UHGV virus genome: UHGV-0851987
DNA length: 31,064 nt
Reading direction: 5' to 3' (one strand)
DNA from: a virus
A program made the translations under genes and the position numbers. Below, piece by piece: positions 1,163 to 29,754 of the stretch. The notes below the pieces were generated by a model. The model was not told the DNA's origin and searched no databases. It worked only from the letters and a program-made list of their open reading frames with translations. Positions within the stretch are counted from its first letter, which is position 1. Every line of letters starts with the position of its first letter.

Positions 1163-1414
1163 TCAGGCAGCCTTGTTGTAAATGTTGCAGGTATCAAGTA
1201 AGTAATTAGATGGAGCGCCATAAATTATGAATTCATCGTTTGTCGGGTCCATCTCCATCTCTTGGCCTATTGCCATTCTTGCGTCAGTGTCATCAGCGGC
1301 GAAGCATAAAACAGCCCACGCTCCCATTGTTTTAAAAAGAACTGCAATTGGCTGTGGTTTTACTGAATTTGCGTTAGCGCGGAAATCATAAATCGCACTT
1401 TCATGAAATTCCAT
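1163..1414 (-). CDS. Hypothetical small early protein (83 aa), translationally coupled to N; occupies the position taken by ral in lambda
   Basis: ORF in track. The ATG lies 4 nt after the N stop codon, with GAGGGG overlapping the end of N. No family recognised with confidence. Confidence 0.6.
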   Translation of the reverse strand: MEFHESAIYDFRANANSVKPQPIAVLFKTMGAWAVLCFAADDTDARMAIGQEMEMDPTNDEFIIYGAPSNYLLDTCNIYNKAA

Positions 1415-6601: not shown

Positions 6602-7048
6602 ATGAAGCAAATATACATGCTTCGCAACGAAGCAATCAGAAACAACGCCATAGACGCAATACTCTCACTTCCGATCGACGACAAGTCACCTCACGAAGTC
6701 CACATTAAAGAACCAAAGCGGAGCAATCCTCAAAACCGCCTTATGTGGGCGTTATTGCAGGACGTATCGCGTCAGGTGCTCTGGCATGGAGAGAGACTTG
6801 CGCCGGAGGACTGGAAAGATCTGTTCACTGCCCTGTGGCTTAAGACCAAAAAACTGGAGCAACGAAGTGCGCCTGGTATCGACGGTGGCGTTGTTATGCT
6901 TGGCGTGCGTACCAGCAAAATGCGAAAGGCCAGTATGACTGAGCTTATCGAAATCATGTTCTGGTTCGGCTCAGAGCGCAACGTGCGGTGGAGTGATGAC
7001 TCCCGGAGAGAGTATGAATGGTCACAACGAAAAGGGAGAGCTGCATGA
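6602..7048 (+). CDS. ninB: NinB-like recombination protein
   Basis: Resembles my recollection of lambda NinB (shared motifs QNRLMWALLQDVSRQV.WHG, GVRTSKM, ERNVRWSD). Start at ATG 6602 after GAGG. Confidence 0.8.
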   Translation: MKQIYMLRNEAIRNNAIDAILSLPIDDKSPHEVHIKEPKRSNPQNRLMWALLQDVSRQVLWHGERLAPEDWKDLFTALWLKTKKLEQRSAPGIDGGVVMLGVRTSKMRKASMTELIEIMFWFGSERNVRWSDDSRREYEWSQRKGRAA

Positions 7049-7572
7049 CTATCAAATCAAATACCCCGGCACACGACAAGGACTGCTGGAGAACGCCGCT
7101 TTGGCTTTTTGATGCACTGGATATTGAGTTTGGATTCTGGCTGGATTCGGCAGCGAGCGACAAAAATGCTCTGTGCGCTCACTGGCTAACTGAGGCTGAC
7201 GACGCGCTAAATTCTGAGTGGATAAGCCACGGTGCAATCTGGAATAACCCACCGTACAGCAATATCAGGCCGTGGGTGGAAAAAGCCGCTGAGCAGTGCA
7301 TACAACAGCGACAGACGGTAGTGATGCTTGTGCCAGAGGATATGTCTGTCGGATGGTTCAGCAAGGCTCTGGAGAGTGTTGACGAAGTTCGTATTATCAC
7401 TGATGGACGGATTAATTTTATCGAACCATCGACAGGGCTGGAGAAGAAGGGAAACAGCAAAGGTTCCATGCTGCTGATTTGGCGACCGTTCATCAGTCCT
7501 CGACGGATGTTTACTACCGTATCCAAAGCGGCATTGATGGCGATCGGGCAGGGCGTCAGGAGGGCGGCATGA
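7045..7572 (+). CDS. DNA N6-adenine methyltransferase (phage Dam-like, orphan)
   Basis: NPPY catalytic motif (IWNNPPYSN) and the overall phage Dam family pattern. ATGA overlap with the ninB stop; GGGAGAG RBS. Confidence 0.8.
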
Positions 7573-9063: not shown

Positions 9064-9248
9064 ACGCCACAATTCAAACGATACCAGAGCTTCTTATCCA
9101 GACACGAGGCAATCAGACCGAAGTGGCGAGGATGCTTTCCTGCGCAAGAGGAACAGTGCTCAAGTACAACCGAGACAGCAAAGGCGATCGTCACGTAATA
9201 GTTAACGGCGTCCTGATGGTCAAACAGGGAAAGAGGGGAAGACGATGA
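9060..9248 (+). CDS. ninH: NinH-like protein
   Basis: Core GNQTEVARMLSCARGTVLKY and VNGVLMV resemble lambda NinH. ATGA overlap with the antirepressor stop. Confidence 0.7.
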   Translation: MNATIQTIPELLIQTRGNQTEVARMLSCARGTVLKYNRDSKGDRHVIVNGVLMVKQGKRGRR

Positions 9249-9733
9249 GCATAAGAGAACTAAACCTCACCAAAGAGCAGCACGAGTGGCTGAATGGCTG
9301 GCTTGAACTGTGGGGAGCATGGGTTTATTCAGGCCGCCTGGAAAAGCGCATGAGCAGCGTAATAGCGAAGTTCATGGAGAGCGTAGAGCCGGGAAGAGTT
9401 ATGACAAGGCCAATGTGTAATGATGATGATGGAATGTTGATTTCTCAGGTCGTCGATTCCGTCATGTACATTGACAAGAAAGCCTTTGGCATCCTCCTCA
9501 GCTACTACGCTCATGGATCTTCCAAGCATGCCATTGCATCTTACTATCATCGTGTCGCAAGACCTCGCAAGATGTTATGCCGGGGCGGCGGGCGTATTCA
9601 AAAACCATCGCTCGCAACCTGTCGCCGGGAAGTTGACGAAATCCTCAATGCTTCGTTGTTTATGATTTACCCGGTTCTGGATAGTGCGTTTAAAAATCGG
9701 AAACGTGTAGAGAAAATTAAACATGTAGCATAG
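9245..9733 (+). CDS. Q: Late-gene antitermination protein Q (phage 82 / QuuD-like family)
   Basis: WGAW ... RP.C.DDD motif pattern typical of the Q82/QuuD family. Position immediately upstream of the late promoter region and lysis genes. GAGGGGA RBS; ATGA overlap with ninH. Confidence 0.75.
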   Translation: MSIRELNLTKEQHEWLNGWLELWGAWVYSGRLEKRMSSVIAKFMESVEPGRVMTRPMCNDDDGMLISQVVDSVMYIDKKAFGILLSYYAHGSSKHAIASYYHRVARPRKMLCRGGGRIQKPSLATCRREVDEILNASLFMIYPVLDSAFKNRKRVEKIKHVA

Positions 9734-9739
9734 AACTTG

Positions 9740-9780
9740 TTGACATCATTGAGCAAATGAGCAACACTATTGGCATAAGC
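9740..9780 (+). promoter_or_regulatory. Candidate late promoter PR' and Q-utilisation region
   Basis: TTGACA at 9740-9745, located 6 nt after the Q stop. No convincing -10 hexamer at 17-nt spacing, so the assignment is positional. Confidence 0.35.
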
Positions 9781-9820
9781 TGCCGTTAGTGACTCTTAAG
9801 TTGCAACGGTGGCTTTTTTT
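9781..9820 (+). terminator. Intrinsic terminator downstream of PR' (tR'-like)
   Basis: Stem CTGCCGTT/AACGGTGG (with G-U pairs) followed by C and a 7-nt T run (9814-9820). Confidence 0.5.
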
Positions 9821-9824
9821 ATTT

Positions 9825-9896
9825 GGGTCAGTCGTATAAAGGTCATTACGGAAGGCTGTTAACCTTCTTATCGTGGTTCGAGTCCACGCTGTCCCG
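9825..9896 (+). tRNA. tRNA-Asn (anticodon GUU)-like, with one acceptor-stem mismatch
   Basis: Hand fold: acceptor GGGTCAG/CTGTCCC (U-U mismatch at 4:69), D-loop with GG, anticodon stem GAAGG/CCTTC with loop CUGUUAA, T-arm CGTGG-TTCGAGT-CCACG, discriminator G, encoded CCA at 9897-9899. Confidence 0.5.
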
Positions 9897-9904
9897 CCAA
9901 ATAT

Positions 9905-9977
9905 GCTGGTTTAGCTCCAATGGTAGAGCAGTCGCCTTGTAAGCGAATGGGTAGCGGTTCAAGTCCGTTAACCAGCA
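9905..9977 (+). tRNA. tRNA-Thr (anticodon UGU)
   Basis: Hand fold: acceptor GCTGGTT/AACCAGC, U8 A9, D-arm GCTC-CAATGGTA-GAGC, anticodon loop CUUGUAA, T-arm AGCGG-TTCAAGT-CCGTT, discriminator A, encoded CCA at 9978-9980. Confidence 0.65.
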
Positions 9978-10222
9978 CCATAACTGAGCCGTAGCCACTT
10001 GCTATCCTGGATTCATCAGTGATAGTTACGCTGCGGCCTTCTACGCATGACCTTCGTGAAAGCGGGTGGCATGAGGTTGCCCTAACAACCTCCTGCCGTT
10101 TTGCCCGTGCATATCGGTCACGAACAAATCTGATTACTAAACACAGTAGCCTGGATTTGTTCTATCAGTAACCGACCATATTCCTAATTAAATAGAGCAA
10201 ATCCCCTTATTGGGGGTAAGAC

Positions 10223-10546
10223 ATGAAGATGCCAGAAAAAAATGACCTGTTAGCCGCCATTCTCGCGGCAAAGGAACAAGGCATCGGGGCAATCCTTGCG
10301 TTTGCAATGGCGTACCTTCGCGGCAGATATAATGGCGGTGCGTTTACAAAAACAGTAATCGACGCAACGATGTGCGCCATTATCGCCTGGTTCATTCGTG
10401 ACCTTCTCGACTTCGCCGGACTAAGTAGCAATCTCGCTTATATAACGAGCGTGTTCATCGGCTACATCGGTACTGACTCGATTGGTTCGCTTATCAAACG
10501 CTTCGCTGCTAAAAAAGCCGGAGTAGAAGATGGTGGAAATCAATAA
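10223..10546 (+). CDS. S: Holin, lambda S type (dual-start MKM motif)
   Basis: Translation [62 protein letters not shown]... is nearly identical to lambda S as I recall it. Confidence 0.95.
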
Positions 10547-28428: not shown

Positions 28429-29754
28429 TTATCTTTGAGTTCTCGCAAATCTAAGGCATAGCAACACAAAAGAGAATGCCACTAAAAATACAGACATATC
28501 AACAACATAAGCAATGCCAACAGGAGGCGATAACAGTAGCTGCAAAGATCTAATATAAAAAACAGCCAAAAACGAAGATGTAAATGGAAGCATGCATCCT
28601 GAGTTTTTATACTTTGCTTTTGAAATCCTTCCTATTATAAAACCTATAATAGACGTCATAATTAAGCTTCCAATAAATCCAAAAAACACATATCCTGCAA
28701 GATCAAAGTGACTTGTTGGACCTCTTGCAATATCATCCCATGGGTACCATTGTTTCCATATCAATCTACCTACATCATTATCAAAATAGTTATATGAGAA
28801 CACGGTTTTTACAAATCCATTTCCACCTATATATCCAAATAGCTGAATAAAAGGGTTTTCAACAACTATTCTATTGATAGTGTCGTAAGGCAGAGAAAAA
28901 TAGTAAGCATCTCCATTTGCAATTATTCTCATAAGGAATAGCTCAAATATAACAGGCAAGTCTGTATACTGAGAACTGGTATAACCTATAGATTCAGATG
29001 TAAACGTCAAAATATAAAGAACATATGCAATCATGGCTGAAAAAGATACGAGACTGATTGCCAAGAACTTTAAATTTATTCTTGGAGACACACCTGAATA
29101 TATATATATTGCCGCTATTGATACTAGCGCGTGTTCAAGAAGAGAGAACTTAGCACCTGACACAAAAGACGCAATAACAGCCACTAAAATTGCAAAAAAT
29201 ATAATAATTGCTCTATTTAACTTATTTTTTGTTTTGTATATATTTATAGCCAGCATAGCTGACAATAACAATCGCACAACATCTAGTATTCTTACAATTA
29301 CTCCAAGACCTTTATTTGCCTCAAACCTTGATTCACCAAACGAAGAGAATGAAACATTTAATAAATAGTACGCTGTTAATACAACATACATAACAAAAAT
29401 AATCTTAAATGAAAATTTATAGTTGCTGTCTACCTCTCTGAAAAGAGCGTTTCTAAGACCAGCTATTGGCTTTATGTTTAGACTAAATGAAAATCTCCAT
29501 GTTATAACAAGGATAATAAAGTTAAGTAGTACCATTATGGCTAGGTAATCGTCTATGTACCCGTAAAGATATAGAATTATGACAACTGAATATGCAGTTC
29601 CAGAACCGAAGGCAAAAAAGTAGTGCGCTGGATCTATTATTCCATAGGTTGTTTTTCTTATTGCTTTGTAGCATAAGAACGCGCAAAGAAAGGTTAATAG
29701 CATGTAACCAATCCAGTGTGTGAATATAAAACTGAAAAATTCACTATCGCTCAT
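28429..29754 (-). CDS. Polytopic inner-membrane protein, candidate O-antigen polymerase (Wzy/EpsG-like) serotype-conversion moron
   Basis: 441-aa ORF with roughly 10-12 hydrophobic segments and high F/I/Y/L content. Visibly AT-rich DNA compared with the rest of the window. Located between tailspike and integrase, where P22/Sf6-type phages carry O-antigen-modifying genes. Lacks the acyltransferase-3 signature expected of an Oac-type acetylase. The function is inferred. Confidence 0.7.
   Translation of the reverse strand: MSDSEFFSFIFTHWIGYMLLTFLCAFLCYKAIRKTTYGIIDPAHYFFAFGSGTAYSVVIILYLYGYIDDYLAIMVLLNFIILVITWRFSFSLNIKPIAGLRNALFREVDSNYKFSFKIIFVMYVVLTAYYLLNVSFSSFGESRFEANKGLGVIVRILDVVRLLLSAMLAINIYKTKNKLNRAIIIFFAILVAVIASFVSGAKFSLLEHALVSIAAIYIYSGVSPRINLKFLAISLVSFSAMIAYVLYILTFTSESIGYTSSQYTDLPVIFELFLMRIIANGDAYYFSLPYDTINRIVVENPFIQLFGYIGGNGFVKTVFSYNYFDNDVGRLIWKQWYPWDDIARGPTSHFDLAGYVFFGFIGSLIMTSIIGFIIGRISKAKYKNSGCMLPFTSSFLAVFYIRSLQLLLSPPVGIAYVVDMSVFLVAFSFVLLCLRFARTQR

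Follow-up and report, generated by a model that had tools for sequence, protein, structure and literature searches.

Two tRNA genes in the late leader of a P22-like phage as probable nuclease-resistant replacement tRNAs

A temperate, P22-like phage genome carries a gene for tRNA-Asn(GUU) next to one for tRNA-Thr(UGU) in its late leader, between the terminator that follows the antiterminator gene Q and the holin gene S. We studied them in the window, a stretch of 31,064 nucleotides of the virus genome UHGV-0851987. Both genes are real and probably encode functional elongator tRNAs; they form a phage 21-type late-leader cassette and, with considerable room for doubt, the pair is best read as late-expressed, nuclease-resistant replacement tRNAs. 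For tRNA-Thr this reading draws on published work with an identical sequence; for tRNA-Asn, and for the PARIS system, it is suggested by sequence features. The cassette itself is already known, having been annotated in phage 21, Sf6, SfI and many other phages for some two decades. Positions 9734–10222 of the window are the entire Q–S intergenic region. Its features and those that flank it are as follows.

9245–9733, plus strand: Q, the late antiterminator of phage 21 type, 162 aa (161 of 162 aa identical to phage 21 Q; an antiterminator in OL657228)
9740–9768, plus strand: pR′ with embedded QBE (coordinates carried over from the phage 21 annotation by alignment, offset +8233)
9740–9745, plus strand: pR′ −35, TTGACA (identical to phage 21)
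9748–9763, plus strand: QBE half-sites ATTGAGCA/AATGAGCA between −35 and −10 (identical to phage 21)
9763–9768, plus strand: pR′ −10, AACACT (identical to phage 21)
9775–9782, plus strand: putative start of late transcription (A9775), then the sigma-dependent pause element TAAGCTG, 9776–9782 (homology transfer from OL657228)
9777–9824, plus strand: tR′ terminator of 21 type, with hairpin 9779–9813 (35 nt), U7 run 9814–9820, then AUUU (fold; annotated in phage 21 and Sf6)
9825–9899, plus strand: tRNA-Asn(GUU), 75 nt (ARAGORN; Rfam, 55.3 bits; covariation; sequence identical to phage 21 and Sf6)
9900–9904, plus strand: 5-nt spacer AATAT between the tRNA genes (sequence; AACAT in phage 21 and Sf6, one substitution)
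9905–9980, plus strand: tRNA-Thr(UGU), 76 nt (ARAGORN; Rfam, 61.5 bits; sequence identical to phage 21 tRNA-Thr)
9983–10222, plus strand: late leader of lambda-like sequence, reaching the S start codon (93.4% identity to lambda 44943–45185)
9988–10037, plus strand: conserved leader hairpin (−24.2 kcal/mol, z = −3.4)
10068–10103, plus strand: terminator-like hairpin followed by GUUUUG within the leader (−26.6 kcal/mol, z = −4.3)
10223–10546, plus strand: holin/antiholin gene S, which opens the late operon (S107, with S105 starting at 10229; at the nucleotide level 98.8% identical to lambda S; ORF list)

ARAGORN calls exactly two tRNA genes across the 31-kb window, tRNA-Asn and tRNA-Thr, both on the plus strand. 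The Rfam model RF00005, with a gathering score of 29, recovers the same two at whole-window E-values of 1.6e-9 (tRNA-Asn) and 3.4e-11 (tRNA-Thr), far above chance, and model positions 1–71 of 71 are covered by both, a full cloverleaf. A reading of the sequence made beforehand, without database searches (hereafter the sequence-only reading), had proposed a tRNA-Thr(UGU) and a tRNA-Asn(GUU)-like gene and named such predictors as the check; both genes are upheld, in the reverse of the order it gave, with tRNA-Asn first. At E ≤ 10, Rfam returned no third RNA family between 9700 and 10300.

The 3′ CCA is encoded in both genes, and the discriminator base is G73 in tRNA-Asn and A73 in tRNA-Thr. The acceptor stem of tRNA-Asn does contain the U-U mismatch described earlier, which the NC line of the Rfam alignment places at U4·U69 (pair 4:68 in the covariation numbering), and the D stem contains a U13·U22 mismatch. 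Its anticodon arm, GAAGG/CCUUC, encloses the loop CUGUUAA. E. coli AsnRS recognises G34, U35 and U36 together with the discriminator G73, and all four are present by sequence in tRNA-Asn; the acceptor pair 4:69 is not known as an AsnRS identity element. In tRNA-Thr, a G27·A43 mismatch atop the anticodon stem leaves a stem of 4 bp (arm GUCGC/GCGAA). By sequence, this tRNA carries the ThrRS identity set of G1-C72, C2-G71, G35 and U36 (Hasegawa et al. 1992, as cited in PMC12445682).

Upstream, the tR′ hairpin has a predicted stability of −20.2 kcal/mol (z = −6.1; 0 of 200 shuffles were as stable) and is identical in the window, phage 21 and Sf6. The sequence-only reading had placed a hairpin/U7 terminator downstream of Q and directly before the tRNAs, and we find it there, at 9779–9820, with 4 nt between the end of the U7 run and the start of tRNA-Asn. 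All elements of a phage 21-type Q antitermination module are present, namely a Q21-family protein, pR′/QBE, the pause element and the intrinsic terminator; for the late elements of phage 21, which were characterised by experiment, the OL657228 annotation cites PMID 31455742, 31663818 and 1704887. From this architecture, and from the identity with the phage 21 system (PMID 1704887, 31455742), we infer Q-dependent read-through of tR′. RNA polymerase would start at pR′ (A9775) and, without Q, would halt at the hairpin/U7 terminator about 40–45 nt on. With Q loaded at the QBE, it would read through into tRNA-Asn(GUU), the 5-nt spacer and tRNA-Thr(UGU), and then run on through the lambda-like leader to the lysis genes and those of the virion. 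The tRNAs, with their CCA ends encoded, would be released by RNase P and host 3′ trimming enzymes, a route based on the layout of the region and on how E. coli generally processes its tRNAs. The pair could also be expressed by N-antiterminated pR transcription through Q and tR′, or by terminator leakage in lysogens. A sigma-70 consensus scan gave no promoter between the terminator and the tRNAs, a weak negative since the scan also misses pR′, because of its weak −10. Our literature search turned up no report on how the tRNAs of this locus or of its close relatives are expressed, processed or charged, and no assay of the phage 21/Sf6 tRNA-Asn.

Downstream, the stretch that follows the tRNAs is lambda-like S-leader, as the sequence-only reading had stated, and its first hairpin lies 7 nt beyond the end of tRNA-Thr. 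Among 48 distinct sequences of this hairpin, which are too alike for such an analysis, no pair showed compensatory covariation. In lambda itself, a 160-bp segment runs from the tR′ T-tract to the conserved leader; we considered whether it might be a degenerate tRNA pair and rejected the idea, its local score being 18 against 15.3 ± 2.0 for shuffles, with 66 of 500 shuffles equal. Pfam and PADLOC searches with the unknown ORFs near the ends of the window gave no matches.

The arrangement closely follows that of phage 21 (OL657228; Guo et al. 1991, PMID 1704887; Yin et al. 2019, PMID 31455742), which has the same order, Q21-pR′-QBE-tR′-tRNA-Asn-tRNA-Thr. The two genomes are 99% identical over 9245–9982 and 98.8% identical over 9734–9982, where the −35, QBE, −10, hairpin, U7 run and both tRNAs are the same; the three substitutions all lie outside the tRNAs, one upstream of the −35 (9737), one shortly before the start site (9773) and one within the spacer (9903). 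The genomes part downstream: phage 21 goes on with a short T-rich leader, the S21 pinholin and a SAR endolysin, the window with a lambda-type leader and S/R lysis genes. The window genome is otherwise P22-like and not lambda-like. Phage Sf6 (AF547987), which covers 78% of the window at 95% identity, shares with it the terminator hairpin, both tRNAs, the lambda-like leader, the S/R genes and the P22-like virion genes. However, the Q of Sf6 has diverged (172 aa, 85% identical) and the promoter/Q-binding region differs, the window having the phage 21 allele.

Of 5,426 complete E. coli genomes, 369 carry the cassette. The Asn-Thr unit stands behind a 21-type terminator at 72 or more loci, behind a lambda-type tR′ at 15, with the junction within the T-tract, and also behind other upstream sequences, usually with the same conserved leader next. 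The earlier description of the tRNAs as inserted in the late leader is a fair one. In all cassette variants tRNA-Asn stands first, although this constancy follows from how the search was designed. Phage P1 (OP279344) independently has an adjacent tRNA-Asn(GUU)-tRNA-Thr(UGU) pair in the same order; its tRNA-Thr is about 80% identical to that of the window. The P1 tRNA-Asn bears no visible sequence relation to the window's, and the pair lies in another genomic setting. In lambdoid Stx phages such as 933W, ileZ-argN-argO occupy the same slot, between Q/pR′/tR′ and stx, where the Q-dependent late transcript has its 5′ end. Those tRNAs have anticodons for rare Ile and Arg codons and belong with another Q type, and the usual explanation for them is codon supply for stx and the late genes.

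The function that we favour for the pair is suggested by work on anticodon nucleases. In the proposed mechanism, Toprim-type nucleases of rival mobile elements (P2 Old and probably PARIS AriB) cut the anticodon stems of host tRNAs, and the replacement tRNAs of the phage would sustain late-protein synthesis. A 2025 study found that the tRNA-Thr(UGU) of phage 21, tRNAThr21, shields cells from P2-OLD and is cleavage-resistant in vitro, and ascribed this resistance to changes in base pairing (U28-A42) together with shortening of the anticodon stem (PMC12445682). The rescue was of Old+Gam toxicity by plasmid-expressed tRNA, not of phage plating on a P2 lysogen, and was partial, with small colonies (PMC12445682). 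The same study reports that P2-OLD cuts tRNA-Asn(GUU) too, at a slower rate, and that E. coli has one tRNA-Thr(UGU) gene (PMC12445682). The tRNA-Thr of the window should be the tRNAThr21 tested there; this identification rests on its matching the sole tRNA-Thr in the 41.3 kb of phage 21 scanned and on the described U28-A42 pair and shortened stem. Phage 21 also encodes gam, Old's trigger. Late expression would follow this early trigger, so that the timing is not obviously ideal for counter-defence.

Turning to PARIS, the AriB targets all have U36-A-A-U39 in common, and a change at U39 stops cleavage of tRNA-Lys; the Lys, Thr and Asn tRNAs of T5 jointly neutralised PARIS, and the bypass needed T5 tRNA-Lys (PMC11464382, PMC12409363). 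The UGU tRNA is the primary target of Old and a major target of AriB, and the GUU tRNA is a secondary target of both (PMC12445682; PMC11464382, PMC12409363). The two host tRNAs have paired CNG triplets at positions 28-30/40-42 (CUG/CAG in thrU, CGG/CCG in asnT), and both also have UAAU (U36AAU39). The window tRNAs have neither, reading UCG/CGA and UAAG in tRNA-Thr and AAG/CUU and UAAC in tRNA-Asn; position 39 is likewise changed in the Thr and Asn tRNAs of T5. In their anticodons the window tRNAs agree with the T5 and anti-Old rescue tRNAs, matching the primary Old target and two of the three main targets of AriB. Rescue and window tRNAs alike differ from the host at sites that the nucleases use, namely at position 39, in the CNG triplets and at the 27:43 pair. 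Compared with T5-type sets, the window has two genes in the late leader of a temperate lambdoid/P22-like phage rather than the large tRNA cluster of a virulent one, and, unlike T5, it has no tRNA-Lys(UUU), the prime AriB target. Since PARIS bypass needed T5 tRNA-Lys, the window's Asn and Thr tRNAs alone should not defeat PARIS.

Some other tRNAs of these types carry host-like motifs. In P1, tRNA-Thr has the full 5-bp stem with CUG/CAG and tRNA-Asn keeps UAAU, while some Klebsiella-type variants of the cassette tRNA-Asn, with a GCAGG/CCUGC arm, regain the paired CNG motif. The P1 tRNA-Thr and the Klebsiella-type tRNA-Asn both speak against counter-defence.

The principal alternative, which deserves serious weight although we think it unlikely, is that the tRNAs serve codon supplementation only, boosting the decoders of phage-favoured codons, ACA foremost, with defence irrelevant. 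ACA makes up 33% of Thr codons in the window (17.4 per 1000) against 12% (6.5 per 1000) in a 50-kb sample of E. coli K-12 (odds ratio 3.4, p = 9e-18), and the host has the single tRNA-Thr(UGU) gene mentioned above. Relative to that sample, Asn codons are 1.27-fold commoner in the window. The same ACA bias is reported in the SfI paper (17.3% versus 7.1%), and the phage L paper finds that 24 of 25 coat-gene Asn codons are AAC. The strong ACA enrichment fits plain codon supply too, which counts against counter-defence.

However, ACA use is not sorted by cassette presence. The two cassette carriers use ACA for 32% (window) and 19% (phage 21) of their late-gene Thr codons, and the two that lack the cassette for 29% (HK620) and 12% (lambda). 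The early genes of the window, translated before Q acts, are equally ACA-rich, at 34%. The phage-host codon comparison proposed in the sequence-only reading gave ACA enrichment relative to the 50-kb K-12 sample, but no AAC/AAU bias, AAU being slightly higher if anything. The SfI authors likewise found no Asn codon bias and saw no reason for the tRNA-Asn. Because HK620 has late genes about 97% identical to those of the window and no tRNA gene, codon supply on its own is not enough to account for the cassette, and with ACA use unsorted and AAC/AAU bias absent we set codon usage aside as its sole explanation. Codon supply also gives no reason for the phage tRNAs to differ from those of the host at just the anticodon-stem sites that Old and AriB use. 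For replacement tRNAs, a better supply of ACA decoding is likely a secondary benefit.

A quite improbable alternative is that the tRNA-Asn-like gene is a decaying or non-functional passenger, that U4·U69 marks its loss of function and that tRNA-Thr alone matters. The notion accords with the two non-canonical pairs, U4·U69 and U13·U22, with a single-sequence fold barely better than shuffles (z = −1.7), with the SfI authors' view, and with an in vitro translation assay in which host tRNA-Asn was cut too weakly for ribosomes to stall (PMC12409363). Against it, the tRNA-Asn family shows compensatory double changes at 11 of 21 stem pairs across 22 distinct variants, a result matched by 0 of 500 shuffles, and 90.5% of cells are paired. 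U4·U69 is retained in 20 of the 22, including those with swapped pairs 5:68, 6:67 and 7:66, and since it is kept while neighbouring pairs swap, it appears to be a selected or tolerated feature, not decay. G73 is found in 21 of 22 variants and the encoded CCA in all 21 full-length ones, both outside the retrieval pattern; that pattern fixed positions 11-40, and the invariant anticodon loop follows from it. The stem covariation eases the doubt that the sequence-only reading had voiced over this gene, and family-wide sequence comparison largely settles the matter toward a functional tRNA-Asn gene that is not decaying. For tRNA-Thr, double changes occur at 4 pairs (3 of them in the acceptor stem) among 20 variants, with 94.8% of cells paired. 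G27·A43 is present in 20 of 20, and G1-C72, C2-G71, G35, U36 and A73 are invariant in all 20.

Least probable of all is that the tRNAs act mainly as RNase P/RNase E signals that detach the terminator leader and set the 5′ end of the late mRNA, with decoding incidental: the closeness of tRNA-Asn to the U-run (4 nt) and of tRNA-Thr to the stable hairpin 9988–10037 (7 nt), a possible 5′-end cap, would suit it, but lambda and HK620 have the leader hairpin without tRNAs, a processing signal needs neither synthetase identity elements nor an encoded CCA, and tRNAThr21 decodes ACA in vivo, as it rescues Old toxicity (PMC12445682).

Beyond the reading of the pair as replacement tRNAs, we tentatively put forward a broader proposal, which may well turn out to be wrong. 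The Asn-Thr pair might be a co-selected, mobile counter-defence kit of temperate enterobacterial phages against the Toprim anticodon-stem nucleases of P2-like phages and P4-like satellites (Old, PARIS AriB). The tRNA-Asn would itself be resistant, U4·U69 and G27·A43 would be part of the evasion, and the cassette would move between late-terminator T-tract and leader whatever the Q type.

As a genome feature the cassette is ordinary, its arrangement is not new, and a function of its Thr member was published in 2025. The interest that is left lies in tRNA-Asn, which has the anticodon of a secondary Old/AriB target, has lost the motifs and carries an acceptor mismatch that appears to be under structural selection. 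Should tRNA-Asn turn out to be a replacement that resists cleavage, small temperate phages would possess portable anti-nuclease tRNA sets of minimal size; this, if true, would help to explain which lambdoid/P22-like prophages induce or spread in hosts with P2/P4-borne defences.

Exactly two tRNA genes were called by ARAGORN in the entire 31,064-base window, and these are the two that a sequence-only reading had proposed:

9825–9899, plus strand: tRNA-Asn(GTT); Rfam tRNA model, 55.3 bits
9905–9980, plus strand: tRNA-Thr(TGT); Rfam tRNA model, 61.5 bits

Both match the Rfam model across its full length, above its curated threshold of 29 bits, and both encode CCA. A permissive Rfam scan of 9700–10300 returned no RNA family besides these two. 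The U·U mismatch reported for the acceptor stem of tRNA-Asn is real and falls at pair 4:69 (U4·U69), with a further mismatch in the D-stem, U13·U22; tRNA-Thr has a G27·A43 mismatch at the top of the anticodon stem. The two sequences are identical to their phage 21 and Sf6 counterparts.

The window is a P22-like (Lederbergvirus, Sf6/HK620-like) phage or prophage of Escherichia/Shigella, its first 25 kb being 78% covered by Sf6 at 95% identity. By PHROG matches, the gene order is N, cI, cII, O, P (a DnaB-like helicase), NinB, DNA methylase, an antirepressor-like gene and Q up to the tRNAs, followed by S, R, Rz, terminase, virion genes, tailspike and integrase. The DNA methyltransferase gene (7018–7572, plus strand; phrog_111, E = 4e-88) is one of the nin-region genes and stands between NinB and Q. 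ORFs of 354 and 83 residues (18–1082 and 1163–1414, minus strand) are found just past the N-like antiterminator gene, where P22-like phages often place exclusion genes; they have no Pfam or PADLOC match and hit only PHROGs of unknown function. Between tailspike and integrase, where P22-like phages usually carry genes for O-antigen modification, a 441-residue ORF (28429–29754, minus strand) likewise has no Pfam or PADLOC match and is covered at full length only by phrog_14022, of unknown function.

The curated phage 21 record, OL657228, maps directly onto the late regulatory region, since Q is identical at 161 of 162 residues and window 9734–9982 is 98.8% identical to phage 21.

Late regulatory features; all but Q transferred from OL657228
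9245–9733: Q protein, 162 residues, 161/162 identical to phage 21 Q
9740–9745: pR' −35, TTGACA
9748–9763: Q-binding element, ATTGAGCA / AATGAGCA
9763–9768: pR' −10, AACACT
9775: transcription start, A
9776–9782: sigma-dependent pause element, TAAGCTG
9777–9824: terminator tR', hairpin plus U7

RNA starting at 9775 folds into a hairpin at 9779–9813 followed by U7 at 9814–9820 (−20.2 kcal/mol, z = −6.1), confirming the terminator proposed downstream of Q, and tRNA-Asn begins 4 nt after the U7 run. The leader that follows the tRNAs is lambda-like, as had been noted, with 93.4% identity to lambda 44943–45185 between 9983 and the S start codon, and S shares 98.8% identity with its lambda counterpart. 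By homology with phage 21, pR' would be constitutive, with the transcript stopping at tR' unless Q loads at the Q-binding element and pause site. Q-modified polymerase would then transcribe both tRNAs right where the late operon begins, and RNase P and host 3' trimming would free them. Q-independent expression may come from N-antiterminated read-through from pR and from terminator leakage in lysogens.

Several other elements surround the cassette. A stable hairpin at 9988–10037 (−24.2 kcal/mol, z = −3.4), beginning 7 nt past tRNA-Thr, is kept by almost every cassette-bearing locus, as it is by lambda, phage 21 and Sf6. A T-run (CTTCTTTTTTT) comes after it in phage 21-type leaders, where it resembles a second intrinsic terminator; the window and lambda have no such T-run. 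Phage L has an annotated terminator at the matching position. A second hairpin, terminator-like and trailed by GUUUUG, lies at 10068–10103, some 120 nt upstream of S; it derives from the late leader of lambda (lambda 45028–45071), with a mid-stem U·C mismatch where lambda has G-C. The Q gene also keeps, at 9557–9570 on the minus strand, the CII-binding motif annotated in phage 21 for the antisense promoter paQ, TTGC-N6-TTGC (TTGCGAGGTCTTGC). The promoter pR' is constitutive in lambda and Stx phages; if the same holds here, lysogens should steadily produce a terminated leader RNA of 40–45 nt from 9775–9820. The equivalent short leader RNA of Stx phages is reported to work as a regulatory sRNA (PMC7547250).

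Both tRNA structures bear marks of selection. Among 22 distinct variants of tRNA-Asn, 11 of 21 cloverleaf pairs have changed on both sides, a level reached by none of 500 column shuffles and by no slid control; the retrieval pattern fixed positions 11–40, so that variation could show only in the acceptor arm, the T arm and pairs 28:42 and 29:41. U4·U69 is retained in 20 of the 22 and survives where pairs 5:68, 6:67 and 7:66 are swapped compensatorily (GGGUCAG/CUGUCCC, GGGUCGA/UCGUCCC, GGGUAGG/CCUUCCC). Such persistence speaks against decay, and from this pattern the mismatch looks tolerated or selected. G34, U35, U36 and G73, the AsnRS identity elements, are present. In tRNA-Thr, covariation shows at three acceptor pairs, and all 20 variants keep G27·A43.

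We fetched 132 occurrences using a pattern within the tRNA-Asn body. Among them, Asn then Thr was the commonest arrangement (97), followed by Asn without a partner (10), Asn then Gly(UCC) (8), Asn-Phe-Thr-Arg(UCU) (6) and a few others. The Asn-Thr unit stands behind a 21-type terminator in at least 72 loci and behind a lambda-type 6S RNA/tR' terminator in 15, including the IMG/VR and GTDB contigs L015, L020, L029, L032, L051 and L054. In these 15 the junction lies within the terminator T-tract (TTTTTTATT|GGGTCAG; also …GGGATTTTTTATT|GGGTCAG…), which suggests that the cassette moves between Q types by recombination inside the T-run. The unit also occurs behind other upstream sequences. Across these settings the same conserved leader, TAACTGAGCCGTAGCC, usually comes after it, and the upstream gene encodes a Q21-like, Sf6-Q-like, lambda-Q-like or Klebsiella-phage Q-like protein. 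Because the unit recurs behind differing terminators and Q genes with a conserved leader, "inserted in the late leader" is a fair description. The sequence-only interpretation of 9734–10222 is supported. At the cassette site, lambda's own 160-bp segment is not significantly similar to the tRNA pair.

Alternative or enlarged cassettes occupy the same slot, namely Asn-Phe(GAA)-Thr-Arg(UCU), Asn-Gly(UCC), Asn-Thr-Arg(UCU) and Asn-Thr-Gly, at loci including Klebsiella phage Mulock (L005:901–1220) and E. albertii (L014). None of their extra anticodons is among the published targets of the tRNA-cutting nucleases Old (phage P2) and AriB (PARIS defence system) in the papers compared. The second tRNA of phages L and ST64T (L004:781–852) is 72 nt long, with its anticodon arm rewritten; it goes uncalled by ARAGORN, and the GenBank record and phage L paper (PMC8022706) name it tRNA-Leu(UAA). 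Its acceptor, D and T arms align with tRNA-Thr, which suggests a Thr gene that has been remodelled or has degenerated. Phage P1 (L007:1425–1578) has a tRNA-Asn(GUU) gene adjacent to a tRNA-Thr(UGU) gene, in the window's order, but its Asn gene is unrelated in sequence, so the pairing arose at least twice.

Counter-defence is a likely function of tRNA-Thr and a putative one of tRNA-Asn. Inhibition of RecBCD activates Old, whose lethality comes from cleaving tRNA-Thr(UGU), the only one in the host, at a paired CNG motif on both anticodon-stem strands; tRNA-Asn(GUU), tRNA-Lys(UUU) and tRNA-Val(UAC) are slower targets (Govande et al. 2025, PMC12445682). Old-poisoned cells are rescued by phage tRNA-Thr(UGU) genes, and the one from phage 21 (tRNAThr21) protects cells, in a partial, plasmid-based rescue, and withstands cleavage in vitro, which was ascribed to C28U/G42A base-pair changes and a shortened anticodon stem (PMC12445682). 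Phage 21 has no second tRNA-Thr within the 41.3 kb scanned; its gene is identical to window 9905–9980, with exactly U28-A42 and G27·A43. Phage 21 also carries gam, the Old trigger. All AriB targets share U36-A-A-U39, changing U39 abolishes cleavage of tRNA-Lys, and the Lys, Thr and Asn tRNAs of T5 together neutralise PARIS (Belukhina et al. 2025, PMC12409363).

Anticodon arms (27–31/39–43; 28–30/40–42; 36–41)
E. coli thrU: ACUGA/UCAGU; CUG/CAG (paired CNG); UAAUCA
Window Thr: GUCGC/GCGAA; UCG/CGA; UAAGCG
E. coli asnT: GCGGA/UCCGU; CGG/CCG (paired CNG); UAAUCC
Window Asn: GAAGG/CCUUC; AAG/CUU; UAACCU

Compared with the host tRNAs, both window tRNAs thus lack the paired CNG and UAAU; position 39 is likewise altered in the T5 Thr and Asn tRNAs. 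Counting against counter-defence are the partial, plasmid-based nature of the tRNAThr21 rescue, the paired CNG regained by some Klebsiella-type tRNA-Asn variants, and the lack of a tRNA-Lys(UUU), without which the cassette alone should not defeat PARIS.

Codon supply, discussed in the SfI (PMC3636060) and phage L (PMC8022706) papers, is a plausible bonus for tRNA-Thr. Of the window's Thr codons, 33% are ACA (17.4 per 1000 codons), compared with 12% (6.5 per 1000) in a K-12 sample of 50 kb (odds ratio 3.4, p = 9e-18). Against the same sample there is no AAC/AAU bias among Asn codons, which are only 1.27-fold more frequent. Nor does ACA use sort with the cassette: its share of Thr codons in late genes is 32% in the window and 19% in phage 21, which carry the cassette, against 29% in HK620 and 12% in lambda, which do not. 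HK620 has late genes about 97% identical to the window's and a lambda-type Q, but zero tRNA genes. As an account of the whole cassette, and especially of tRNA-Asn, codon supply therefore does poorly.

The cassette is already known. Genes for tRNAs downstream of Q were described in Sf6, ST64T, PS3 and p21 (PMC3636060, PMC8022706), and the Asn-Thr pair is annotated at the corresponding site in phage 21, Sf6, SfI, BTP1, SPN9CC and many more. Matching phage records number 176 for the intergenic region and 210 for the tRNAs, and 369 of 5,426 complete E. coli genomes contain the pair, labelled there by PGAP as tRNA-Asn and tRNA-Thr. Its likely function, too, is partly published.
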